A stretch of DNA of 64,000 bases. Origin: an uncultured Candidatus Saccharibacteria bacterium. GTDB lineage: Bacteria; Patescibacteriota; Minisyncoccia; Phycocordibacterales; UBA9973. The stretch covers positions 4,123 to 68,122 of the forward strand of contig CAZHJZ010000004.1 of the NCBI GenBank assembly GCA_964532495.1, given 5' to 3'. The notes under the pieces were generated by a model. The model was not told where the DNA came from and made no database searches. It was given only the letters and a program-made list of their open reading frames with translations. Both the position numbers and the translations under genes were made by a program. Below, one piece after another: positions 8,593-34,059 of the stretch (the stretch's first letter is position 1; the number at the start of each line of letters is the position of its first letter).

Positions 8593-8689
8593 AAGGTGGA
8601 AGAGTTTTCTTCTGGAAATATTGTAGCATAAACATGTGTAAGGGAGCAGCGATTTGCTGTTTTTCCAATTTCCCTCTACACTACGATAT

Positions 8690-10156
8690 ATGCCAGAAGT
8701 ACAAGACATTATCTCCCAGCTCCCATCCCCTCCAAAGAAAGACGTAGAGCTGATTATGAAAGCTTACGATTTCGCCCTGAAAGCCCACCAAGGCCAAGCC
8801 AGAAAGAGCGGCGAACCCTACTTTATACACGTCTTTGCAACTGCCAAGAACCTAGCAGAACTAGGGATGAGCCCAACTGTCATTGCTGCAGGCTTCCTTC
8901 ATGACACTATCGAGGACACGAAAGTCACCGCAAAGGAAATCGAAAAAGAATTCGGCAAAGAGATTCTCGATCTCGTAAAAGGCGTCACCAAGCTCGGTAC
9001 TCTTAAGTATCGAGGAGTAGAGCGCAATGTTGAAAACCTCCGCAAGTTCTTCGTAGCTATGGCCGCTGACTTCCGCGTGATTATCATCAAGCTCTGCGAT
9101 CGATTGCACAATGTCCAAACGCTGCAGCACGTCAGTCCTGAAAAGCAGCAGCGCATTGCGCTTGAGACGCTTGAGATCTATGCTCCGCTTGCCAACCGAT
9201 TGTCTATGGGTAAACTTCGCGGACAGCTTGAAGACGCTGCCTTCCCTTTCGCTTTCCCAGAAGAATATGAGAAAGTAAAAAAACTCCTCGCGGAACGAAA
9301 GGATGCTGATGAAAAATATCTCGTCGAGTTTGAAAATGCATTGAAGCTAAAATTGCGAGATGTAAAACTCAGTACTGTCAGAATGGACTACCGACTCAAG
9401 CATCTGTATTCTCTCTGGAAGAAGCTTGAAAAATACGAAGGAGATATCAACAAAGTCTACGACATCATGGCTCTTCGCATCATCGTGAAATCAATCGAGG
9501 ACTGCTATCAGGTACTTGGAGTCATTCATGGCTCGTGGAGACCGTTGCCAGGCAAAATCAAGGACTACATCGCCCTTCCAAAACCAAACGGCTACCGCAG
9601 TCTTCATACCACGGTCCTCACTGGTACTGGAGGCATTGTTGAAATTCAGATCCGAACCGAAGAAATGCATATTGAAGCTGAATATGGTATCGCGGCCCAC
9701 TATGCGTATAAAGAAAAAATTAAGCTTGAGAAAAAAGACATCCGCAAGCAGTATGAATGGATCGAGCACCTTAAAGATGCTCAAAAAAAGATTACTGACA
9801 CCGAACAATTCTTTGATTCCCTCAAGATGGATTTCTTTAAGAATCGCGTATTCGCCTTTACTCCAAAAGGCGACGTCATAGATTTGCCGGAAGGCGGATC
9901 AGTTATCGACTTCGCATACAATGTTCACTCAGATGTAGGCAATCATGCTACTGGCGCAAAGATTCATGGAAAGTATGTTTCCCTCGATACCAAGCTCCAC
10001 AACGGCGATATCTGCGAGATTGTTGTTCAAAAAAATGCCAAGCCGACGACAAAGTGGCTTGAATTTGCAAAAACATCTATTGCCCGAAACCGCATTCATA
10101 AATATTTAAAAGCTAATTCTTCACTGGCTCAAAAGTTTGAAGACTTCTTGAAATAA
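8690..10156 (+). CDS. rel: (p)ppGpp synthetase/hydrolase, RelA/SpoT family (minimal form)
   Basis: HD domain (HVFATA...FLHDTIEDT), a synthetase domain (LRIIVKS...YRSLHT) and a TGS region (VFAFTPKGDVIDLP). No ACT domain, and only ~490 aa. Confidence 0.85.
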   Translation: MPEVQDIISQLPSPPKKDVELIMKAYDFALKAHQGQARKSGEPYFIHVFATAKNLAELGMSPTVIAAGFLHDTIEDTKVTAKEIEKEFGKEILDLVKGVTKLGTLKYRGVERNVENLRKFFVAMAADFRVIIIKLCDRLHNVQTLQHVSPEKQQRIALETLEIYAPLANRLSMGKLRGQLEDAAFPFAFPEEYEKVKKLLAERKDADEKYLVEFENALKLKLRDVKLSTVRMDYRLKHLYSLWKKLEKYEGDINKVYDIMALRIIVKSIEDCYQVLGVIHGSWRPLPGKIKDYIALPKPNGYRSLHTTVLTGTGGIVEIQIRTEEMHIEAEYGIAAHYAYKEKIKLEKKDIRKQYEWIEHLKDAQKKITDTEQFFDSLKMDFFKNRVFAFTPKGDVIDLPEGGSVIDFAYNVHSDVGNHATGAKIHGKYVSLDTKLHNGDICEIVVQKNAKPTTKWLEFAKTSIARNRIHKYLKANSSLAQKFEDFLK

Positions 10157-11323: not shown

Positions 11324-11405
11324 GCCCAGGTGGCGGAATTGGTAGACGCGCTCGACTCAAAATCGAGTATCGAAAGATGTGGGAGTTCGACTCTCCCCCC
11401 GGGCA
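11324..11405 (+). tRNA. tRNA-Leu(CAA), type II with long variable arm
   Basis: Cloverleaf with acceptor GCCCAGG/CCCGGGC, anticodon loop CTCAAAA and T-arm GGGAG-TTCGACT-CTCCC. No CCA is encoded. Confidence 0.85.
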
Positions 11406-11407
11406 CA

Positions 11408-12337
11408 ATGAAAAAACCAGAGACTACAGAAAAGCCGAGGCTTATTGTCGTTCTGGGTCAGACTTCGACGGGCAAGAGCGATTTTGCAGTATCTTTGGCA
11501 AAATCGCTCTTGAAAACTGGAACGAAAGCGGAAATCATTTCGGCCGATTCTCGGCAGGTATATAAAGGACTTGATCTTCTTTCTGGTAAAATTACTAAAA
11601 AAGAAATGAAAGGAATTCCTCACCATCTCCTTGATGTCGTTTCGGCAAAGAAAGTTTTTAGCGTTGCGGATTTTCAAAAAAAGGCCGCAAAAATAATTAC
11701 CGAAATTTCTAAGCGTGGAAATCTTCCAATTCTTGTCGGAGGAACTGGTTTTTATATTAATGCTGTAATTTCTGGCCAAGTGCTCCCCGAAGTTCCTCCA
11801 AATAAAGCACTTCGTGAAAAGTCTCAAAAAATGACACTCAAACTACTCTTTGAAAAATTAAAGCAACTCGACCCAGCTCGAGCAAAAACTATAGACACAA
11901 AAAATAAAGTCCGGCTTATCCGCGCAATCGAAATTGCTACTGCTCTAGGTAGTGTTCCAAAACTTTCTAAAACAGAATCACCGTATAATATTCAGATTAT
12001 TGGACTTATTGTTCCAGAAGCACAACTCAAGCAACGAATTCTTCTTCGCCTTTTAAAACGGATCAAACAAGGTATGCTCAAAGAAGCAGAAGCGCTCCAC
12101 AAATCTGGAATTTCCTGGAAACGCATGCACGGTCTCGGTCTCGAGGCCCGCTACAGTGCCCTATACTTGCAAAAGAAGATAGGAAAAGAAGAAATGCTAT
12201 CGGAACTCGAAAAGGCCATCTGGCAGTATGCAAAACGGCAAATGACGTGGTTTAAGCGAGATACAACCATTATCTGGATGAACTCATCAGAACCGAAGAA
12301 AGGATTAGAAAATTCTATACAGTTTCTAAAAAAATAA
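11408..12337 (+). CDS. miaA: tRNA dimethylallyltransferase
   Basis: P-loop VVLGQTSTGKSDFAV plus the MiaA core. The ATG lies 2 nt after the tRNA-Leu 3' end. Confidence 0.85.
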   Translation: MKKPETTEKPRLIVVLGQTSTGKSDFAVSLAKSLLKTGTKAEIISADSRQVYKGLDLLSGKITKKEMKGIPHHLLDVVSAKKVFSVADFQKKAAKIITEISKRGNLPILVGGTGFYINAVISGQVLPEVPPNKALREKSQKMTLKLLFEKLKQLDPARAKTIDTKNKVRLIRAIEIATALGSVPKLSKTESPYNIQIIGLIVPEAQLKQRILLRLLKRIKQGMLKEAEALHKSGISWKRMHGLGLEARYSALYLQKKIGKEEMLSELEKAIWQYAKRQMTWFKRDTTIIWMNSSEPKKGLENSIQFLKK

Positions 12338-12697: not shown

Positions 12698-12730
12698 CAG
12701 AAAAATGCAAGATAGGCCGGTAGGCCTATC
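12698..12730 (-). terminator. rho-independent terminator of alr-ddl transcription unit
   Basis: gataggcc-ggta-ggcctatc, an 8-bp GC stem. On the minus strand it is followed by ttgcattttt. Confidence 0.55.
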
Positions 12731-12821
12731 TCCGCGCCCCGCGTGATACCCCTAAAATTCCTATACCAGGGGCGTGCTGCCACTAAGCGTAAGCACAACG
12801 GAAATCTTGTTTCTAAGGAAC

Positions 12822-13958
12822 TTATAGAGCCTTCTTGCTACTTATAAACCTAGTTACCGAAGGACTTATTCGGGTTACCAATTCATAATTGATCGTATCA
12901 GCCGCCTCAGCCAATTCCTCGGCTGAAATTATTTCCTGCTTATCTTTTCCGATAAGTGTGACTGTATCGCCAATTTTCACTCCTGGAATATCAGTGATAT
13001 CTATGACAGTCATGTTCATCATGACGCGCCCGAGAATACGGGCGCGCTTTCCTTTCACTAAGACTGAGGCCTTTCCTGAAGCACTGCGAGGATAGCCATC
13101 GGCATATCCAATCGGAAGCACGGCAACAACGGTATCTCGCTGTACTCGCGCCGTAAGATCGTAGCCAACATAACTTCCCGCCTGCAATTTCTTAACCTCA
13201 TTCACTACGGTTTTCCATTCCAATACTGGTTTCAATAGCATGCCCTTTGAAAGCGCTGCAGTTTCTTTGGATGGCCACAATCCATACAAGCCAATTCCAA
13301 ATCGCGCCATTCCTAAACCAAATTCTTTTGAAAGGAATACCCCGGCAGTAGCGCTGGCATGTACCAATGGGAATATTCCGATTTCTGAGAGAATTTTCTG
13401 CCATTCAAAAACAAACGCTACTTGCATTACTGTGTACGAATCATGGAGACGGCTTTCTGAGGCAGAAAAATGAGTAGCCAATCCCACCACTTCAATATTT
13501 TTATTTCCGGAAATAAGCGCAACAACGCGAGAACTGTCATCTAGCAAAAATCCATCCCTACCCAACCCTGTATCAGTCATCAAGTGAATGCGCAGCGGCT
13601 TCTTGAGTTTTGTTTTTTTAAGTTCTGTCAAAAGTTCAAATGTTGAGACGGCAACTTCCAAATCGTACTTCTGAGCAAGGGGAATTTCATCAGCAAAAAT
13701 ACTTCGAAGAATGAGTATCGGCGCTTTAATTTTAGCTTTTCGCAGAGCTACTCCTTCTTGAATATCAAAAACAGCAAGATAGTCTGCTCCGCCCGCGATG
13801 GCTGCTTGCGCAACAGGAATCATGCCATGCCCATATGCGTCTGCTTTTACTACTGCCAAAAACTTTGTCTTAGGCAGCAATTGTTTTTTGAGTGATGTTA
13901 CATTTGACTTCACTGCCAAAAGATCTATGGTTGCCCATGTTCGTTCGATATGTTTCAT
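12822..13958 (-). CDS. alr: alanine racemase
   Basis: PLP-lysine motif AVVKADAYGHG, with N-terminal barrel and C-terminal beta domain. Confidence 0.9.
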   Translation of the reverse strand: MKHIERTWATIDLLAVKSNVTSLKKQLLPKTKFLAVVKADAYGHGMIPVAQAAIAGGADYLAVFDIQEGVALRKAKIKAPILILRSIFADEIPLAQKYDLEVAVSTFELLTELKKTKLKKPLRIHLMTDTGLGRDGFLLDDSSRVVALISGNKNIEVVGLATHFSASESRLHDSYTVMQVAFVFEWQKILSEIGIFPLVHASATAGVFLSKEFGLGMARFGIGLYGLWPSKETAALSKGMLLKPVLEWKTVVNEVKKLQAGSYVGYDLTARVQRDTVVAVLPIGYADGYPRSASGKASVLVKGKRARILGRVMMNMTVIDITDIPGVKIGDTVTLIGKDKQEIISAEELAEAADTINYELVTRISPSVTRFISSKKAL

Positions 13959-13961
13959 TGC

Positions 13962-16331
13962 TTAATACTCTGAGCTACGAATGATAGTTTCTAGAAGGTC
14001 GATCGGATACATCTGAGTCGGCTCCGCAAGCGCTTGGTGATACAACACCGTAGATGGCGTTAACCCAGGAAGCGTGTTTACTTCGATTATTTTCACATTG
14101 CCAGTTTTTAATTCCAAGAATGCGTCGATACGGGCGTAGCCTTTTATGTTAATAGCGCCAGCAACATTTGCGATGCATTCGCGAGTCCATTCCAATTGCT
14201 TTGGCTTGATCAGCGACGCAGGCGGCGGCGTGATATTCACACCGGTACCTCCTTGGAATTTTTCTTCAACTGAAAGCACCGAACCCTCAGCAACGGTAAT
14301 GCTTGGGAACAGCGCTCTCGGCTTCTTCCCTCCTTCTTCCAAAACTCCAACAGTAACTTCTACCCAGCCGCTTTTCTTTGTATGTTTCAATTTGTTTCCA
14401 CGAACTCGTACAGAGTCCGTCGTAACGAATTCTTCCAAGATAAGTTCGTCGAGCTTTGATTGCGGCATCTCTACTGCTTCTAACTGATTGGTGAAAATTC
14501 CTTTTGGAATAGTAGGCGCAGCAGTTTTTGCATAAAGCACATATTTTTCAAGATCGTGAGCACTCATGAGGCGGACGATACCTGCCGAACATCCGTCAGC
14601 GCGAGGTTTGACTATCAAGCTATCGCTTCCTGCATCAGCGATGCATTTGTCCCAAACATCAGAATAGTTTGTTCTTTCATTCAGCTGCTGGATATTGAGT
14701 AGAAGGTGGTTAGCAACACTGACGCCTGGAATATGAAGATTTTTCAAAGTCTCATTGGTCTTCCATTTGTCCATGCACAAGATCGAAGTAGCGGCATCAG
14801 ATCCGTTGTATTTTACTTTACTCTTGGTGAGCATTGCTTGCAGCGTCCCATCTTCCCCAATGCCTCCGTGGAGGGCTAGGAAGACATATGGGCGGGTATG
14901 GATGAATTCTTTAAGAGAAGTACGCTCTGGCAAGAAAAATGGCTCTGTGGCGTCACCGTCTTCGAGAGACAGCTTGTACTTTACCTTTTCAGTAAGCGAG
15001 CCGATACGATCCATATCTTTGGATGCACGCTTGGCATTGGCAATGATTTCTTCAACGGTGTGGTTCAAAATAAGCGCATACGGCAATCGCCATACTTCGT
15101 TATTGAATCCAAGAAGATACGGTGTTGGCTCGTAGTTTTTGGACATGCGGAGCTTGAGCCAAACGTTTGTGCCGCTCATGAGCGATACTTGGCGTTCTGC
15201 AGTACTTCCCCCAAATAGAACAGCTACTGGCTTCCGATTAGTAATTTCCGATGTATTTTTTTCATATGGAATGCCATAGCGTCGGCAGGCGCTCTTTAAA
15301 ACATACGTCAAAAGATCTCGATGAGAAAATCCAATACGAGCCGACTGCTGGAAAAGGAAACTGTTCTGCTCCATTCCAGAAATAGGATTGAAGTCAGAGA
15401 ACCAAATATTTCCATCTGGCATAACCCAGCCATCGAAACGCGCGAAGTCGTGCATGCCAAGAATATTCCACAGCTGCTCAGCTTGGATCTGAATCTTTTC
15501 GATCACATCGTTTGGAAATCGTGGAGGACAATGATATGCCACTTGGCGAGACGGTAGATATTTTTTACGGAAGTCGAATATCTGATGTTCGCTGTAGTCC
15601 GCTTCGATCTCTGTCGGCAAAACTGCCACTCCCTGTCCAAATCTGTTTTCAAGAACGATGACAGTAAACTCGGTACCGATGGCAAATGGTTCGATCACTA
15701 CGCGAGTGTCCATGCGCTTCGAAAAAATATGTTCGGCACTTTGTAGAGCATTCTCAATCGTATCGACTGAAAACACGCCGATGCTTGATCCGCCAGTGGC
15801 GGGCTTTACGATAGCGCGAGTAATATTGTGTTTCTTGAAAAATGCTTTGACGAGCTGCTTGTGATCCTTTCCATAAATCTTGAGCACCAGCGACGGCAAT
15901 GTATAAAACCCATGCTCGGCGATCAATTCGTTCGCTTTGTGCTTATCGAATACTTTCTTGCAAGCGCTTTCCGGAGAACCGATGTGCGGAATATTATTTT
16001 TTTCCAAAAATGCCTGGATCACGCCATCTTCGCCAAATGTCCCGTGCATGACAGGAAAAGCGATATCTGTTGTCTTCAGCAATTTAATGAGCGCTTTCTC
16101 AGTAAGCGGCTTCCCTGTTTCTGCCAGCTTGAAATCAAAATCAGATGGAGTATTGCAATACAGCTGAGAGGGAGAAATATGAAATGCCTGACGCTTATGG
16201 TCAAAATAGATCGGCACAATTTCAATTCCTTCACCGCCAAGATGATCGAGCACTGATCGAGCCGAGTTAAGCGATATTCCGCGTTCGAGTGAAGGTCCGC
16301 CGCACAGTAATGATACTTTCATATTTTGCAA
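13962..16331 (-). CDS. ddl: tandem-fused D-alanine--D-alanine ligase (two complete Ddl/ATP-grasp modules, 789 aa)
   Basis: Module 1 has SLLCGGPSLERGISLNSARSV...VMHGTFGEDGVIQ...HIGS...KPATGGSSIGV...DFNPISGM. Module 2 has AVLFGGSTAERQVSLMSGT...ALHGGIGEDGTLQ...YNGSD...KPRADGCSAGIV...EVNTLPGLTPSTV. Confidence 0.85.
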   Translation of the reverse strand: MQNMKVSLLCGGPSLERGISLNSARSVLDHLGGEGIEIVPIYFDHKRQAFHISPSQLYCNTPSDFDFKLAETGKPLTEKALIKLLKTTDIAFPVMHGTFGEDGVIQAFLEKNNIPHIGSPESACKKVFDKHKANELIAEHGFYTLPSLVLKIYGKDHKQLVKAFFKKHNITRAIVKPATGGSSIGVFSVDTIENALQSAEHIFSKRMDTRVVIEPFAIGTEFTVIVLENRFGQGVAVLPTEIEADYSEHQIFDFRKKYLPSRQVAYHCPPRFPNDVIEKIQIQAEQLWNILGMHDFARFDGWVMPDGNIWFSDFNPISGMEQNSFLFQQSARIGFSHRDLLTYVLKSACRRYGIPYEKNTSEITNRKPVAVLFGGSTAERQVSLMSGTNVWLKLRMSKNYEPTPYLLGFNNEVWRLPYALILNHTVEEIIANAKRASKDMDRIGSLTEKVKYKLSLEDGDATEPFFLPERTSLKEFIHTRPYVFLALHGGIGEDGTLQAMLTKSKVKYNGSDAATSILCMDKWKTNETLKNLHIPGVSVANHLLLNIQQLNERTNYSDVWDKCIADAGSDSLIVKPRADGCSAGIVRLMSAHDLEKYVLYAKTAAPTIPKGIFTNQLEAVEMPQSKLDELILEEFVTTDSVRVRGNKLKHTKKSGWVEVTVGVLEEGGKKPRALFPSITVAEGSVLSVEEKFQGGTGVNITPPPASLIKPKQLEWTRECIANVAGAINIKGYARIDAFLELKTGNVKIIEVNTLPGLTPSTVLYHQALAEPTQMYPIDLLETIIRSSEY

Positions 16332-16513
16332 AAGTTAGTTTCTGAAAAACGTAATAAAATAAAGCTAAAAATCACTTAGTTCTACAGAAAGTATATAGAA
16401 AGATATTCTTTTTGCAAGCAATTTGTTTACTATTTATTTACATAAACTTTAGATTTATTTTAGGCTTAATGACCACACGATCGCCAAAAATATCTTATAT
16501 AACTGATACGGAC

Positions 16514-18166: not shown

Positions 18167-20473
18167 TTAGAGTTCAAACGTCTCACTGATCACGCCTTTA
18201 GCCGCATGGAAGGTATTGGAAGTATAGATCTTTGTATACGTACCGTCAGCATTCTTCGTCTCAACAGTCACATAGACATCTGATCGAGGAACGAGAACAT
18301 AGTAGTGCCCTTCTTCATCTGTAATGCGGTGAGCGATCTCATGATTGAGCGCTGCACTCCAGACTCGGACAATGCCATGCACCACAGGCAAGCCATTCTG
18401 TGTCACCTTTCCAGTTTTTATCGGACCGAGACCAAACGACTGCATAACAACTATGACAACATAGAGCGCAAGCATGAGGAAGTTCCACCACACTGGAGAA
18501 ATAAAGGTAATGACAATCGAAGCGATGAAACCGCCGATAAAGAAGAGGTTAAAGATTGCGTCCATAAGCGCATGGTTGCGAGTAAAATAATGGAGCAAGT
18601 TTCGCTTTCGCTTTTCATCTTGGTTCCAGTCTGTCGCCAATCGATCCATAGGAACGTTAAGAGTAATCACCTTTTCTTCCCCGCTGACAGAGAATGTTTC
18701 GCCGAAGTAAAGATTTTCATACACAGCATCGCGCATCTGTCCTGCTAATTTCTTAGATGGGAACAAATAATTGGTTTTGTTAACGACAATCTGGTATGTT
18801 CCAGTCTTCAAAAAGAATCCATAGCGTCCATCGATATCAGTAATCTGATTATAAACTTCTTTGCCAGTTGCTACGTCGATCGCAGATACATACGCAGGAT
18901 CAAGCGGTTCTTTCGTTTCTGAGTCGTATACGACGCCCCATGGACGCTTGCGGCGATAGAGAGCAATGGTGAGGAGCATGCTGCCAAAACGAGCGAGCAA
19001 GCCAGGAACTGCAGTCAAGAGACCAACTACACCGAGGGCTATCGGTATTGCATGAGGAATTTTTTCAAGCCCTGGAATTTGAAGTCCGCCTCCAAAGAAT
19101 GATGTTATCCCGCCAGTAAGACCGCCACCTGATGAATTCGAAGTAGTTCCAGTAGCGCTTCCTGATGCACTTGTATTGCCAGCCGTAGTATTTTGATCAA
19201 ACTGACATGGCAGTGGTGCTCCGATATTCAAAGCTCCAGGCTCAGTACATACTTGAGACAACGGAATACAATTCCCGTTTCCGTCGATCTGGTGATCTGC
19301 TGGAACGCTTGCTTGAACCCCGGCAATGTTCGGGCACATATCCATCGAAGGCAGCACGCAGTTTCCATTACTATCTGTCTGATATCCAACAGGAACAACA
19401 ATCTGGATTCCTGGTAAGTTGGTACACATGTCACCCTGAGGGATTACACAATCTCCATTATTATCCACTTGATAGCCGCTTGGAACTGAGGACTGCGTTC
19501 CGGCAATGTTCGGACACATGTCTTGACTCGACGTAACACAATTGCCATTTGAATTAACATGGTAACCTTGCGGAACAGTTGACTGAATGCCGCTTAGGTT
19601 CGGACACATATCGCTCGGAGGAATGACGCAGTTTCCTAAGCCATCCACTGCATATCCGCTCGGAATAGTAGCTTGGACACCAACAATATTTGGACAATAA
19701 TCTTGCGCTGGTAGAACACAATTCCCTATTGAATCTACATGGTACCCATTTGGAACGGTTGCTTGTATTCCTGAAAGGTTAGGACAAAGATCTTGGTCTA
19801 TTGGGTAACAATTGCTGTCATTGGTTCCGTAATAACCAGCTGGAACAGATATTTGCAAATCTGGAACATTCTTACAGACATCAATGTCTGGGCGGCCGTC
19901 CACAGTGCCAGGACCGCTCGTTGGTGTCGAAGTAGTGCTTGTACATCCATGCCATGTCGTATTGAGTCCTGTAAATCCGGCCTGCGCGGAAGCTAGCTGA
20001 ATATAGCCATAGTTCTGAGACCAAACCTGTCCTGTAATATCTCCGGTGGAAAGGTTGATATGTGGCGCAATAGTAGCTTGAGAAGGAGCAAAATTAATCC
20101 AGCCAGTATTTTGTCCCCACGCGTATCCGCTCAATACTCCCGAACAATTGTTCTTTACTCCGCCAGTCGGTCCAGCACTTGCAGGATTAAGGTTGATCCA
20201 GCCCACTGTTTCTCCCCAGATTGTACCCGTCACTGCTGTATCGGTAACAGAAACCGCGACACCGTTTGTTGGCATCCAATTGATCAAATCTTTTACTCCG
20301 CTAGAGTCAAGATCAATATCATAGAACTGAGAATATTTCTGCGCGGGGTTGATCGTACCAGTGGCCGCTTTTGTTGTACTTGGCAAAACGATCATGCTCA
20401 GAATGAGCATGGGCAAGAATATGTTTTTAGTAAGCTTAAAAAGATTTGCTGTGAGGCGAGCAATTTGTTTCAT
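18167..20473 (-). CDS. large cell-surface protein: signal peptide, GW-like repeats, 7x30-aa Cys-containing tandem repeats, TM segments, two CarboxypepD_reg-like C-terminal domains
   Basis: The repeat unit is CPN[IL].G[IV]Q.[ST]VP.GY.VD..GNCV.P..DM, seven copies. The N-terminus has a signal peptide (LPMLILSMIVLPSTTKA). Confidence 0.55.
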   Translation of the reverse strand: MKQIARLTANLFKLTKNIFLPMLILSMIVLPSTTKAATGTINPAQKYSQFYDIDLDSSGVKDLINWMPTNGVAVSVTDTAVTGTIWGETVGWINLNPASAGPTGGVKNNCSGVLSGYAWGQNTGWINFAPSQATIAPHINLSTGDITGQVWSQNYGYIQLASAQAGFTGLNTTWHGCTSTTSTPTSGPGTVDGRPDIDVCKNVPDLQISVPAGYYGTNDSNCYPIDQDLCPNLSGIQATVPNGYHVDSIGNCVLPAQDYCPNIVGVQATIPSGYAVDGLGNCVIPPSDMCPNLSGIQSTVPQGYHVNSNGNCVTSSQDMCPNIAGTQSSVPSGYQVDNNGDCVIPQGDMCTNLPGIQIVVPVGYQTDSNGNCVLPSMDMCPNIAGVQASVPADHQIDGNGNCIPLSQVCTEPGALNIGAPLPCQFDQNTTAGNTSASGSATGTTSNSSGGGLTGGITSFFGGGLQIPGLEKIPHAIPIALGVVGLLTAVPGLLARFGSMLLTIALYRRKRPWGVVYDSETKEPLDPAYVSAIDVATGKEVYNQITDIDGRYGFFLKTGTYQIVVNKTNYLFPSKKLAGQMRDAVYENLYFGETFSVSGEEKVITLNVPMDRLATDWNQDEKRKRNLLHYFTRNHALMDAIFNLFFIGGFIASIVITFISPVWWNFLMLALYVVIVVMQSFGLGPIKTGKVTQNGLPVVHGIVRVWSAALNHEIAHRITDEEGHYYVLVPRSDVYVTVETKNADGTYTKIYTSNTFHAAKGVISETFEL
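19247..19876 (-). repeat. 7 tandem 90-bp coding repeats inside surface protein gene
   Basis: Derived from the 30-aa protein repeats spanning aa 200-409. Confidence 0.55.
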
Positions 20474-27757: not shown

Positions 27758-27829
27758 TGACCTAGTCGCCAAGTGGTAAGGCAAAGGTCTGCAAAACCTT
27801 TATACGGCGGTTCGATTCCGCCCTAGGTC
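27758..27829 (+). tRNA. tRNA-Cys(GCA)
   Basis: Acceptor GACCTAG/CTAGGTC, anticodon stem-loop AAGGT-CTGCAAA-ACCTT and T-arm GGCGG-TTCGATT-CCGCC. Confidence 0.85.
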
Positions 27830-27891
27830 TCAACGTTTTGTTTTACAAAATGTACACTGATGATTACATGGTAGACATTGATTACAGAATA

Positions 27892-27920
27892 TTGTTCCTT
27901 TGTCTACAAATTAGTATAAT
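27892..27920 (+). promoter_or_regulatory. putative promoter for HNH gene
   Basis: TTGTTC, a 17-nt spacer, then TATAAT (27915-27920), immediately upstream of the GTG start. Confidence 0.35.
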
Positions 27921-27926
27921 CAGCAG

Positions 27927-28415
27927 GTGAAAAAATGGAATGATGCCGACTTGGCTAAGTCAGTTAAAAATTCAAAAAGTATTAGGCAGGTTTTAGCGAA
28001 ACTATCTCTTGTGGAGGCTGGTGGAAACTACAGTCAAATCAAGCAAAGAATAATCGATCTTGGTTTAAATATTGACCATTTTCATGGCAAGGGATGGCGG
28101 ACAGGCTTACATATTCCCACAACAAAACCTAAACCATTATCGATGCTTTTAGTAGAAAACTCGAGTTACCAAAGCCATAAATTAAAAATTAGATTGTTCG
28201 CAGAAAATATTAAGAAACAATCTTGTGAATTATGCGGGTGGGCAAAGAAATCACTTGATGGTAGAATTCCAGTTGAGCTCGATCATGTAAATGGAGACCA
28301 TAGAGACAATAGGATTGGCAACTTACGAATCCTTTGTCCCAATTGCCATAGTTTGCAACCAACACATCGAGGTAAAAATATAGGAAAGAAAAGCGGAAAC
28401 GGGTCAGTGGCGTAA
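27927..28415 (+). CDS. HNH endonuclease
   Basis: C-terminal CELCGW...LDHVNGDHRDNRIGNLRILCPNCHS HNH/Zn motif. The GTG start is uncertain. The last 15 nt overlap tRNA-Leu(TAA). Confidence 0.7.
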   Translation: MKKWNDADLAKSVKNSKSIRQVLAKLSLVEAGGNYSQIKQRIIDLGLNIDHFHGKGWRTGLHIPTTKPKPLSMLLVENSSYQSHKLKIRLFAENIKKQSCELCGWAKKSLDGRIPVELDHVNGDHRDNRIGNLRILCPNCHSLQPTHRGKNIGKKSGNGSVA

Positions 28416-28484
28416 TTGGTAGCCGCAGCAGACTTAAAATTTGCCGGTCGCAAGACCATGCGGGTTCGATTCCCGCCTGACCCA
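28401..28484 (+). tRNA. tRNA-Leu(TAA), type II
   Basis: Acceptor GGGTCAG/CTGACCC, anticodon stem-loop GCAGA-CTTAAAA-TTTGC, a long variable arm, and T-arm GCGGG-TTCGATT-CCCGC. Confidence 0.85.
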
Positions 28485-28501
28485 CACAACAAAATAATAA
28501 A

Positions 28502-28583
28502 GCCGGGGTGGCGAAATTGGTAGACGCACTTGCCTTAGGAGCAAGCGAGGCAACTCATGGAGGTTCAAGTCCTCTCCCCGGCA
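28502..28583 (+). tRNA. tRNA-Leu(TAG), type II
   Basis: Acceptor GCCGGGG/CCCCGGC, anticodon stem-loop CTTGC-CTTAGGA-GCAAG, and a long variable arm. Confidence 0.85.
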
Positions 28584-28591
28584 CAACGATA

Positions 28592-29476
28592 ATGCACGAC
28601 GCAATTAAAAAACTCATCTTAGAAAATGAAAAGGATACTCGGGTTGCTCTGACCAAACAGTATCCTTTTCTTGTTATTCCCGTACTAGAAACAAAGCGAT
28701 TGATCAATAAACTGCGATACAATCTATCAAGCAGGTTCGATCTCAAACATTCGGACCCAGAACAAACCACGGCTTGGTTTAACATGACCGAACACTCTTC
28801 CCCGCTCTACCGTAAATACAACAAGCGCGAACTCGACGATGGCAAGATATTAAATATACAAAAAGCTATTCATTCGCTTGATGGCTTGGTGCTCGAACCA
28901 GGGCAGATTTTTTCGTTCTGGAAATTCGTCGGAAGAACTGGAGAGAAAAACGGCTTCTCGAGAGGCCTCGTATTATCAGATGGTAAATTGCTTGAGGATT
29001 TTGGTGGCGGGCTTTGCCAGCTTTCAAACCTCATTGCGTACATGTTTGCCTGTACAGAATGTACGTTTATTGAACGCAGGCACCATTCTCGTGACGTATT
29101 CCCTGACAGCAACAGAAGCGTCCCTTTTGCGAGCGGTGCTACCGTGTTTTACAATCTCATAGATCTTAAAGTACAAAATACCTACTCCTTCCCCATTCGC
29201 ATCAATCTTCGAACAACCGACACCCAACTTCGGGGCTCGCTTTCGGCGCCGCACCAGCTCGACTATTCTGTATCGCTGCAAGAACGCGATGCTGGATTTA
29301 TCAAATCGAAAAATTCCGGCAGCACCTATCGATACAACAAATTAGTGCGCGTATTTTACAAAAAAGGACTTCCTGATGGCAAAAAAGAAATCCTTCGAGA
29401 AGAGCCATTATGGGAAAATCTCGCTATAGTCATGTACCCTGATAGCCAGATCACGAGCCCCATCGAAACCACATAA
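28592..29476 (+). CDS. VanW family protein
   Basis: FSFWKFVGRTGEKNGFSRGL...DFGGGLCQLSNLIAYMF...ERRHHS matches the VanW core (GGG[VIL]CQ[VL]S). The ATG lies 9 nt after tRNA-Leu(TAG). Confidence 0.7.
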   Translation: MHDAIKKLILENEKDTRVALTKQYPFLVIPVLETKRLINKLRYNLSSRFDLKHSDPEQTTAWFNMTEHSSPLYRKYNKRELDDGKILNIQKAIHSLDGLVLEPGQIFSFWKFVGRTGEKNGFSRGLVLSDGKLLEDFGGGLCQLSNLIAYMFACTECTFIERRHHSRDVFPDSNRSVPFASGATVFYNLIDLKVQNTYSFPIRINLRTTDTQLRGSLSAPHQLDYSVSLQERDAGFIKSKNSGSTYRYNKLVRVFYKKGLPDGKKEILREEPLWENLAIVMYPDSQITSPIETT

Positions 29477-29545
29477 AACCCGTTCGATATTGAGTTTTTA
29501 GGATTTTAGTGTATACTTAGAAACGTTTTAGAAGAAAACAGACCA

Positions 29546-29618
29546 GCACCCGTAGCTCAGATGGTAGAGCAGCTCCCTTTTAAGGAGATGGTCGGAGGTT
29601 CGATCCCTCCCGGGCGCA
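29546..29618 (+). tRNA. tRNA-Lys(TTT)
   Basis: Anticodon loop CTTTTAA and T-arm GGAGG-TTCGATC-CCTCC. The acceptor has one A-C mismatch. Confidence 0.75.
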
Positions 29619-29770
29619 CACCCTGTGTGCGCAGCACACATACTAAATTGCGCGCCCGGAGCACTGTGCCTGCGCACAGTGCGTGAGGGATCGAAAGGGA
29701 TTTCGATGTCGCCGCTCTGGGCGACCGAAATCCACCCGCGGCGGTAGCCGAGATCCCTCTTAGGGAATAT
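29619..29770 (+). ncRNA. candidate structured RNA (GC-rich multi-hairpin element) co-transcribed after tRNA-Lys
   Basis: Three consecutive GC-rich hairpins: TGTGTGC-gca-GCACACA, GCACTGTGC-ctgc-GCACAGTGC and GAGGGATC...[GGATTTCG(at)GTCGCC-gctctg-GGCGAC-CGAAATCC]...GATCCCTC. An intrinsic terminator follows at 29800-29821. Confidence 0.3.
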
Positions 29771-32404: not shown

Positions 32405-33388
32405 TTAAAATCCAAAGAGTGTTCGCGTGAATCCAACGAGACCCCAGACTGAAACAATGACAAACATGATAAGCACTCCCCACAACATAACTTGTTTGGA
32501 CTTCTTGCGCTCTTCCACTGAATCTGATGAGAGCACGTATTGAACGACTCCCCAGATGAAGTAGACCATGGCAAAGCTAAGTGCAATTGAAACGAGGAAG
32601 CGGTTGATAATGCAGGAAGCGGCGATGAATATATCGGCGAATTTTTTGATACTTACCGAACAGCCTGTCTTGTCGATATTTTGATTGGCTGTTTTGCCGG
32701 CATTATATAGATCGGCGTTGAGATCGGTATATGATTTATTTGGATCATAAATATCAAAACCGATCTTACTATTTGCATTCTGAGCAGCAGTAGAGGCCTT
32801 TGTATTGCCAGCCTGTGCCTGCGAACTGATCCATTGGTTGTAAATAGAAGGATTTGGAAGTGAGTTGTTCAAATACAATCCATTATAGTTTGCCGCACCG
32901 GCATCGTATGATCCGGAACTGTATGCGTTGCTATTGCTCTCTGATGTTCCATTATAAATACCTGGTGCTTGGTTTGCCGCGTCAAAATTCACATTGAAGC
33001 TGTCGATACCTCCTTGGTTTGTGGCTGCATCGCTGCTCGCCTGCGTGCCGTTGAAAACTGTAGAGTTCTGATTTGAGGCGCTTGTATTATTGCTTGTGTT
33101 AGCGGCACTGCCCTGGTTTACTGATGCGTCGCTATTGGCTTGAGTGCCATCGTGTATGCTTGTATTGTCAGCAGCACCTTGGTTCTGAGCACTTGTATTC
33201 GTATCTGATGTACCAGTATAGATATCGGAGTTCTGGTTAGTTGCATTGTTATTTACTTGAGTATTATCATTTGCTCCCTGAGTCTGCGAACTGCCGTTTG
33301 GATCATAGTATTGAGCAAAAGCTCCGCTTGGTACAACCAAGGCGACCAATATCAGTGCTGCTATTATTTTGTGGCTGATGTGGTTCAT
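32405..33388 (-). CDS. secreted N/T/Q/S-rich low-complexity protein with C-terminal TrbC/VirB2-like module (paralog 3)
   Basis: Signal peptide, a ~200-aa Asn/Thr/Gln-rich region, then FLVSIALSFAMVYFIWGVVQYVLSSDSVEERKKSKQVMLWGVLIMFVIVSVWGLVGF. Confidence 0.4.
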   Translation of the reverse strand: MNHISHKIIAALILVALVVPSGAFAQYYDPNGSSQTQGANDNTQVNNNATNQNSDIYTGTSDTNTSAQNQGAADNTSIHDGTQANSDASVNQGSAANTSNNTSASNQNSTVFNGTQASSDAATNQGGIDSFNVNFDAANQAPGIYNGTSESNSNAYSSGSYDAGAANYNGLYLNNSLPNPSIYNQWISSQAQAGNTKASTAAQNANSKIGFDIYDPNKSYTDLNADLYNAGKTANQNIDKTGCSVSIKKFADIFIAASCIINRFLVSIALSFAMVYFIWGVVQYVLSSDSVEERKKSKQVMLWGVLIMFVIVSVWGLVGFTRTLFGF

Positions 33389-33390
33389 AG

Positions 33391-34059
33391 TTATGCCATG
33401 AGGGCTTCAATAGTTGCCTTAATAACAGTGGCGATCATCCATGCGCCCAAGAGAATACCTGCACCGATCAATGTATATAAAAATCGCGTCTTTGCCTTTT
33501 CCAGCTTCTCGCTGTTTCCTCGCGCAAGAACAAACATGAGACCGGAATAAATAATGAATGCGGCAACGATTGGAATAGCGATCTTGAGAATAAGACCGAG
33601 AACTGAAGCAATGAAAGATCCGAAGTCTGAAACATTGATAGGATTTTGAATCTTGCCAACGCCGTTCATTGCGGCCAAACTATTTCCATTCCCATTTCCA
33701 CCAGGAGCTGGAGCCACTCCACCGGGAGCAGGAGCAATGCCTCCTGGCGCTGGAGCTGCGTTAAAATTATTCACCTGCATCTGAGAAGCTGCTGACGGTG
33801 TGGGATTTGTATTGAGCGAAGTACTATGACTATTGGTAGATGTCTGAGATCCGGCAGGAGCTTGCGTGCCATTCAACGGAGCAGCAGGACCTGCGCCGGG
33901 AGCAGTTGTTACAGGAGTAGCTGTGTTGTTGGTCGGCTGTGCCGTATGGACTGTCGTAGTATTGACTGCGGGAAATCCGTTCTGAGCAAAAACAGTAATA
34001 CCAACAGCAGAAACTGCGACAAATGCGATACTGATAATTAAATAGTGAATTTTTTTCAT
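33391..34059 (-). CDS. secreted Pro/Gly/Ala-rich protein with C-terminal TrbC/VirB2-like module (paralog 4)
   Basis: Signal peptide, APAPGG repeats, then IAIPIVAAFIIYSGLMFVLARGNSEKLEKAKTRFLYTLIGAGILLGAWMIATVI. Confidence 0.4.
   Translation of the reverse strand: MKKIHYLIISIAFVAVSAVGITVFAQNGFPAVNTTTVHTAQPTNNTATPVTTAPGAGPAAPLNGTQAPAGSQTSTNSHSTSLNTNPTPSAASQMQVNNFNAAPAPGGIAPAPGGVAPAPGGNGNGNSLAAMNGVGKIQNPINVSDFGSFIASVLGLILKIAIPIVAAFIIYSGLMFVLARGNSEKLEKAKTRFLYTLIGAGILLGAWMIATVIKATIEALMA

Follow-up and report, generated by a model that had tools for sequence, protein, structure and literature searches.

The closest described relatives of the gene analysed here are the D-alanyl-D-alanine ligases of plants (DDL; Ddl in bacteria), which have already been described as fusions of two DDL enzymes (PMC9954125). 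Knockout of Ddl in moss abolishes D-Ala dimerisation for peptidoglycan and produces macrochloroplasts (PMC9954125, PMC9434261, PMC12681378), the moss precursor pool holds the ordinary pentapeptide with its D-Ala-D-Ala end (PMC9434261), and it is only in moss that a tandem DDL has been shown to be required for peptidoglycan synthesis in vivo (PMC9954125, PMC12681378). Plant DDL is retained in all angiosperms, and its two-enzyme architecture is unexplained. Here we analyse a tandem ddl-ddl gene in a 64,000-nucleotide stretch (the window) of contig CAZHJZ010000004.1, which comes from a Patescibacteria (Paceibacterota-like) bacterium. Our analysis indicates that this gene is a direct bacterial counterpart of plant DDL, and that its two modules differ from each other in the same way in bacteria and in plants.

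The gene occupies a minus-strand open reading frame (ORF) at 13962..16331, which encodes 789 amino acids (aa) when counted from a TTG codon; residue numbers below follow this 789-aa ORF. The region before the start reads ...TTG CAA AAT ATG AAA GTA..., and the true start is probably the ATG at 16322, giving 786 aa, because a database copy that is 100% identical to the window protein (P0001) has 786 aa and because the homologue consensus opens with MKIALLCGG. A Pfam scan of the ORF finds two Dala_Dala_lig_N and two Dala_Dala_lig_C domains, and each half scanned separately exceeds the Pfam gathering scores for both domains (80.8 and 94.7 bits for half 1, 70.6 and 55.2 bits for half 2), which bears out the proposal of an earlier note on this DNA that the ORF holds two complete Ddl modules. 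Domain scans and alignment to E. coli DdlB place module 1, consisting of a complete Ddl N domain and an ATP-grasp domain, at 15273..16322 (minus strand), and module 2, complete and divergent with three conserved insertions, at 13965..15242 (minus strand). Between them, an alignment of 118 homologues locates a linker of approximately YGIPYEKNTSEITN at about 15243..15272 (minus strand) and not, as had been supposed, a junction near 15150. Both the sequence and the length of this linker differ among homologues (16-39 aa between fixed flanking alignment columns), with the frame always kept. Identity between the two halves is only about 22%, and to DdlB it is 24-27%. Against sequences from the PDB, the match of half 1 to DdlA-type enzymes runs from end to end (E = 1e-26), while half 2 aligns in three blocks with insertions between them (E = 3e-19). 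The gene is a genuine single-chain fusion of two complete, non-identical Ddl modules. The order of the PDB matches hinted at separate paralogue origins for the halves, one DdlA-like and the other DdlB-like; this idea is unsupported, because the top-ranking NCBIfam models are generic ones and do not differ between the halves.

How common is such a protein? A search of 5.8 billion proteins returned 2744 matches at E ≤ 1e-10, and the best 120 of these, which we inspected, are nearly all 772-827 aa long, with 58-100% identity and roughly 100% coverage. They come from Peregrinibacteria, Parcubacteria, Gracilibacteria, Abawacabacteria and unclassified Patescibacteria, and the exceptions to the length range are one 641-aa fragment and two aminotransferase fusions of about 1175 aa. 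In a scan of one genome per GTDB species, relatives are encoded in at least 496 species, almost all of them Patescibacteria, a group that also goes by the name Candidate Phyla Radiation (CPR), so that the search of related genomes suggested in the earlier note did find the fusion. We also sampled 80 related loci, each with 6 kb of flank on either side, and every one of the 80 has an unbroken reading frame of at least 740 codons. Finally, when half 2 was compared exhaustively by phmmer with 1.84 billion cluster representatives, 282 of them matched at E ≤ 1e-30, and in nearly all of these the matched part is the C-terminal half of a protein of 760-920 aa. The tandem architecture is thus the norm in Patescibacteria and ordinary for its lineage. 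A covalent pseudo-dimer, which had been called unusual, is indeed so beside the textbook Ddl, but only there, being both the rule in this group and the known architecture of plant DDL (PMC9954125). We found no description of a bacterial or CPR tandem Ddl in the searchable literature.

Two sets of sequences in these searches depart from the general picture. Five half-2-type proteins of 404-434 aa (P0137, P0138, P0143, P0180 and P0208) lack half 1; they are probably fragments, since the contigs of P0137 and P0143 are 1.6-2 kb long, although they may instead represent a natural split form with two genes. Four of the related loci carry non-CPR labels. One of them (L068, 'Rickettsiales') is probably a mis-binned CPR contig, because its flanking genes are 64-78% identical to Paceibacterota loci, and the remaining three (L049, Thiotrichales; L051, Parachlamydiales; L059, 'Gammaproteobacteria', on a 2.0-Mb contig) have no neighbours in common with the other loci.

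To compare active sites we aligned DdlB, whose reference sequence was checked and is identical to 2dln/1iov, with 40 N-halves and 40 C-halves from CPR. Residues E15, H63, E68, K97, K144, S151, E180, E187, K215, R255, D257 and N272 (DdlB numbering) are kept in both halves with essentially no exceptions, and G276 is kept in both save for Ala in 6 of the 40 C-halves. Among the ATP and catalytic residues K97, K144, E180, E187, K215 and R255 and the Mg2+ ligands D257, E270 and N272, the sole change is an invariant and conservative E270D in half 1. The same invariance of ATP, Mg2+ and catalytic residues is seen in Bacteroidota, algal/plant and MurF-fused members. Since these residues are invariant in both halves, neither half is degenerate, contrary to the earlier suggestion that one of them could be.

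The halves do differ, consistently, at active-site positions. In half 1 the hydrogen-bond triad by which Tyr-type dipeptide ligases close the omega loop (E15/S150/Y216 in DdlB) is canonical, as E16-S182-Y258, with the codons of S182 and Y258 mapped by alignment to 15786-15788 and 15558-15560 on the minus strand. Its invariant Asp is D313 (codon 15393-15395, minus strand, likewise alignment-mapped), in the motif DFNPISGM, and is accompanied by P275 to S; further differences from DdlB are M259W and L282F. Half 2 instead has the triad E379-C581-F692, in which S150 is replaced by Cys and Y216 by Phe, both invariantly (alignment-mapped codons 14589-14591 and 14256-14258, minus strand), and these two placements agree with independent HMMER alignments to PDB chains. 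It retains the canonical E270 and N272 as E750 and N752, in the motif EVNTLPGLT, has S281 changed to T, and carries an omega loop, EEKFQGGTGVNITPP, that is strictly conserved (EEKFQGGTG), which implies selection for a specific function. Its insertions include a helix with VWxLPYAxxLNHTVEE and a hairpin with TDSVRVxGNxLK. Both motifs, DFNPISGM and EVNTLPGLT, had been quoted in the earlier note and are present, although its choice of half 1 as the atypical module does not stand. Half 2 is the more divergent module: besides the three insertions and the loss of the triad Ser and Tyr, its mean column identity in the 118-homologue alignment is 0.65 against 0.78 for half 1, and relatives are 49-55% identical to the window protein in half 2 against 63-75% in half 1. 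Likewise, the proposal of altered specificity in one half is right insofar as the active sites differ, but the candidate is half 2, with C150 and F216, rather than the half with DFNPISGM. The same half-specific signatures recur in CPR, marine Bacteroidota and green plants, and the asymmetry is old and fixed. A description of this conserved asymmetry was not found in the searchable literature.

The kinship with plants emerged from the half-2 search, whose named matches comprise, among others, marine Bacteroidota (MED-G17, 872 aa) and, from the green algae, Tetraselmis and Myrmecia. With an algal half 2 as query, the matches are DDL proteins of 940-990 aa from Physcomitrium patens, Marchantia, Klebsormidium, conifers, Brassicaceae, cereals and others. 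The window protein and the DDL of P. patens (PpDdl, P0290) are 42% identical over 857 collinear columns that take in both modules and the half-2 insertions, whereas identity to the Bacteroidota form is only 28%. The half-specific signature residues are identical across CPR, Bacteroidota, algal and MurF-fused members. Like plant DDL, the window protein is a tandem whose half 1 has E-S-Y, D270 and xSGM, and whose half 2 has E-C-F, EEKFQGGTG, ExNxxPG and the same insertions; that is, its N-module is Tyr-type and its C-module Cys/Phe-type, collinear with PpDdl. On this comparison of sequences, we assign the window gene to the same family as the two-domain DDL found in land plants and green algae. 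Plant DDL differs in having an N-terminal extension of about 100 aa (a transit peptide), and some algal DDL in having eukaryote-specific inserts or SAP domains, all of which are missing in the bacterial protein; conversely, the bacterial gene lies in an operon with alr. Genetic evidence exists for the plant enzyme, from moss only. The Bacteroidota protein shares the two-module architecture and the half-specific signature residues, but it is 27-33% identical to the CPR and plant proteins, has a longer half 1 with an extra insertion, and forms a separate deep clade.

Which bacteria does plant DDL resemble most? Plant and algal DDL (P0290, P0289, P0299 and others) have 43-47% identity to CPR proteins and 27-33% to the Bacteroidota type. 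We built a bootstrapped neighbour-joining tree on 744 columns, with an assumed root, alongside identity matrices; by both, the plant/algal clade falls inside the CPR-type radiation and far from the Bacteroidota type, with the bacterial sequence P0126 as its most frequent sister (57 of 100 replicates). PpDdl had earlier been stated to be closest to homologues of the Fibrobacteres-Chlorobi-Bacteroidetes (FCB) group (PMC9434261). Unlike that statement, our neighbour-joining tree, given its assumed root, suggests that plant DDL is closer to CPR than to FCB-group sequences, and it hints at a Patescibacteria-like rather than an FCB-group origin. We found no report of a CPR affinity of plant DDL in the searchable literature.

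An AlphaFold2 model, built with a 69-sequence alignment, has a mean predicted local distance difference test score of 88.2 and a predicted template-modelling score (pTM) of 0.87, with low confidence only at residues 681-693, which form the half-2 omega loop. For two modules of equal size, the definition of pTM implies that the relative placement of the halves is predicted confidently, so that they would pack rigidly. All Foldseek matches are Ddl or Van ligase monomers that span one half, with template-modelling scores to the target of 0.78-0.89. In comparison with canonical homodimeric Ddl (DdlB, 2dln; the DdlA-type 3i12), each module shares the fold and keeps the complete catalytic set, and module 1 has the same triad. 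The tandem protein differs in putting two non-identical modules on one chain, and half 2 differs in S150C, Y216F and its three insertions.

What, then, does the tandem enzyme do? The reading we favour, and hold with good confidence, is that the gene encodes the ligase of the peptidoglycan D-Ala branch in an old, asymmetric, single-chain tandem form, with both modules likely active. Alr, encoded just downstream, would racemise L-Ala to D-Ala, the fused ligase with ATP and Mg2+ would condense two D-Ala into D-Ala-D-Ala, and MurF would attach this dipeptide to UDP-MurNAc-tripeptide. Within the ligase, module 1 would act as a canonical Tyr-type dipeptide ligase and module 2 as a fixed variant, marked by its three insertions and distinctive omega loop and by Cys and Phe where Ser150 and Tyr216 would stand. 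Most likely both modules turn over, since they are complete ATP-grasp ligases with intact active sites that would pack into one rigid body. The placement in a D-Ala branch that feeds MurF follows from the operon with alr, from fusions with MurF and Alr, from moss genetics, and from the lack of any second Ddl in the 64-kb window. As to the fusions, one relative is Ddl-Ddl-MurF (P0133, 1262 aa; 323 bits on TIGR01143 against a cutoff of 288.6) and another is Ddl-Ddl-MurF-Alr (P0192, 1638 aa; 357 bits). In two further relatives of about 1175 aa (P0089 and P0110), Ddl-Ddl is joined to a class I/II pyridoxal-phosphate aminotransferase that reaches no NCBIfam equivalog cutoff. Fusion within the D-Ala/Mur branch is familiar from other peptidoglycan enzymes (MurC-Ddl, NF011171; MurF-Alr, NF008897; MurE-MurF, NF008896), but those join consecutive pathway steps, whereas the tandem Ddl joins two paralogous copies of one enzyme. 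On NF011171, the model for MurC-Ddl of Chlamydiae, the window protein scores 157.7 bits against a cutoff of 1015.

Several points weigh against this reading. Enzymology for bacterial members, or for the separate plant halves, was not found in the searchable literature. Of the E15-S150-Y216 triad, half 2 has only one residue, and it may therefore make a product other than D-Ala-D-Ala. Moreover, while TIGR01205, with a cutoff of 245.65, gives the whole protein 319 bits, the halves separately score 186.9 and 138 bits, under every curated NCBIfam Ddl cutoff (245.65). Since each half falls short and only the summed score passes, this plausibly also explains why many NCBI records of the family are named 'hypothetical protein'.

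The differences in half 2 raise the possibility of a division of labour, in which module 1 makes D-Ala-D-Ala and module 2 joins D-Ala to another nucleophile (D-lactate, or another D-hydroxy or D-amino acid), so that the cell would have two kinds of stem-peptide terminus. We regard this as rather unlikely, though it merits real consideration. In the work of Park, Lin and Walsh in 1996, the DdlB substitutions Y216F and S150A reportedly gained D-Ala-D-Lac activity, and since half 2 is changed at both of these positions, it is reasonable to suppose that its nucleophile specificity may be relaxed or altered. The Phe and the Cys hold from CPR to plants, the strictness of the omega loop speaks for a selected function, and it is the presence of Phe or Tyr at this one site that sets depsipeptide or dipeptide activity in lactic acid bacteria (PMC5996685). 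Module 2 shares its Phe at the Tyr216 position with the Phe-type D-Ala-D-Lac ligases (F261 of LmDdl2, 1ehi) and with DdlB Y216F, for which a structure exists (1iow). It has no close sequence relationship to the former, however, and adds both the Cys at S150 and its own omega loop; on the D-Ala-D-Lac model NF000206, half 2 scores 73.7 bits and half 1 93.5 bits against a cutoff of 550, and the D-Ala-D-Ser models are likewise far under cutoff. Phe-type Ddls are in any case still able to make D-Ala-D-Ala, and in moss, whose orthologue carries this half-2 signature, it is the ordinary D-Ala-D-Ala pentapeptide that accumulates (PMC9434261). Nor did we find a linked D-lactate dehydrogenase of the vanH kind, vanX or van regulator in the stretch of the window that was annotated (roughly 0.4-31.5 kb) or in the 80 related loci. 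These last observations also bear on the idea that the gene is a Van-type glycopeptide-resistance ligase tied to a nearby VanW gene, as the earlier note had hinted, an idea that we judge very improbable and reject. Besides the Phe at the half-2 specificity position, what speaks for it is a VanW-domain ORF at about 28.5-29.5 kb, some 12 kb from ddl-ddl. That ORF, however, sits amid tRNA genes and adjoins an HNH endonuclease ORF, and ClpB, IF-2, tRNA and other housekeeping genes on both strands separate it from the ligase. In the annotated part of the window it has no van operon partners, vanH, vanX, vanR and vanS all being absent there. The Van ligase models are all far below cutoff for the whole protein (best VanG, 219.5 bits against 495; VanA, 126 against 775), the downstream alr scores under the VanT cutoffs, and the tandem gene is a vertically conserved core gene of the whole superphylum.

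Alternatively, one module might be non-catalytic, either a structural pseudo-subunit that replaces the homodimer partner or a regulatory site that senses nucleotide or D-Ala. The faster evolution and large insertions of half 2 would suit such a role, as would the E270D change at a Mg2+ ligand in half 1, and T-DNA lines of Arabidopsis in which the second half alone is expressed have no phenotype, which is compatible with one half sufficing (PMC9954125). But Asp can still ligate Mg2+, and a pseudoenzyme would not be expected to keep its catalytic, ATP and Mg2+ residues invariant in both halves from CPR through Bacteroidota to plants; we consider this explanation improbable. That the gene is an artefact, a frameshift or misassembly joining two adjacent ddl genes, has nothing in its favour except the unusual length, and we give it practically no credence. 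The related loci come from independent assemblies, each with its frame unbroken, the best 120 database matches and most half-2-type representatives are full-length, the variable linker stays in frame, and eukaryotic orthologues share the two-module architecture. Collapse of a repeat is impossible, because the halves are only distantly similar. With hundreds of full-length homologues, the artefact raised in the earlier note is excluded.

Under the reading of a D-Ala branch ligase with two active modules, an oddly long ddl turns out to be the regular D-Ala ligase in a very large radiation of bacteria and not an error. As a small and easily expressed orthologue of plant DDL, the bacterial protein offers a tractable route to the role of each half, and the half-2 Cys/Phe variant sits exactly where one residue determines whether a dipeptide or a depsipeptide is made, a choice relevant to vancomycin. 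More speculatively, one could imagine that module 2 is a dedicated ligase for another nucleophile, fixed before CPR, Bacteroidota and plants diverged or exchanged the gene, and that plants obtained their DDL from a Patescibacteria-like donor instead of the cyanobacterial endosymbiont. We think this combined proposal distinctly unlikely, but its consequences would be considerable: Patescibacteria walls, and possibly plastid peptidoglycan, would hold an unrecognised stem-peptide terminus or D-Ala-X metabolite, and the origin would concern a DDL that persists even where an angiosperm has nothing beyond the '4-PGN' gene set.

Turning to the locus itself, the TAA stop of ddl-ddl (13962-13964) is followed by 3 nucleotides and then the ATG of alr, an alanine racemase gene at 12822..13958 on the minus strand (TIGR00492, 321.8 bits against a cutoff of 168). 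The two genes are adjacent, as had been noted, but the order is the reverse of that described, with alr downstream of ddl-ddl in transcription. Across the related loci alr is the commonest neighbour (35 of 80), mostly immediately downstream and on the same strand. About 90 nucleotides past the alr stop, a consensus scan picks out a terminator-like hairpin with a 10-bp stem and a T-rich tail (12709..12732, minus strand), which probably marks the end of the ddl-ddl-alr unit, in agreement with the tight minus-strand unit of alr, ddl and terminator proposed before. Upstream of ddl-ddl, at 16390..16417 on the minus strand, lies a weak, low-confidence match to a sigma-70-like promoter (9 of 12 positions), with a match count not above shuffled expectation. 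Other neighbours across the related loci are housekeeping genes only (RseP-like, M24 peptidase, frr, mreB, miaA). In the window, the surroundings consist of housekeeping genes, which encode Dus, an FtsQ-like protein, SerRS, DprA, TopA, Psd, RelA/SpoT, ParB, MiaA, a NusA-like KH protein, ClpB, IF-2, a class-V aminotransferase and tRNAs.

Some smaller observations concern other parts of the window. At 27759-29619 (plus strand), the HNH-endonuclease ORF (27927-28415) and the VanW-domain ORF lie interspersed with five tRNA genes (Cys, Leu-taa, Leu-tag, Lys); the true start of the VanW-domain ORF must lie farther downstream than its mechanical start at 28508, because this overlaps a tRNA-Leu gene (28502-28584). 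Similarly, in the region 11324-12337 (plus strand) the mechanical start of miaA, a GTG at 11330, falls within tRNA-Leu(caa) at 11324-11406, and the true start of MiaA is probably the Met of MKKPETTEK just past this tRNA. A 500-aa RelA/SpoT homologue encoded at 8654-10156 (plus strand) has HD, RelA_SpoT and TGS domains, with no ACT domain detected, and the genome that carries it appears to be a reduced Patescibacteria genome. On the minus strand, the 768-aa ORF at 18167-20473 is without a Pfam match. It contains about nine copies of a Cys-containing repeat, CPN[IL]xGxQxxVPxGYxVDxxGNCV, together with a Ser/Thr/Gly-rich stretch and hydrophobic C-terminal segments, and it looks like a cell-surface repeat protein. 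Lastly, at 32405-34059 (minus strand), two adjacent ORFs of 327 and 222 aa, which adjoin genes for a solute-binding protein and an ABC transporter, have C-termini that match T4SS_pilin (PF18895), and pilins of this type are a typical feature of type IV secretion loci in Patescibacteria (compare PMC12102498).

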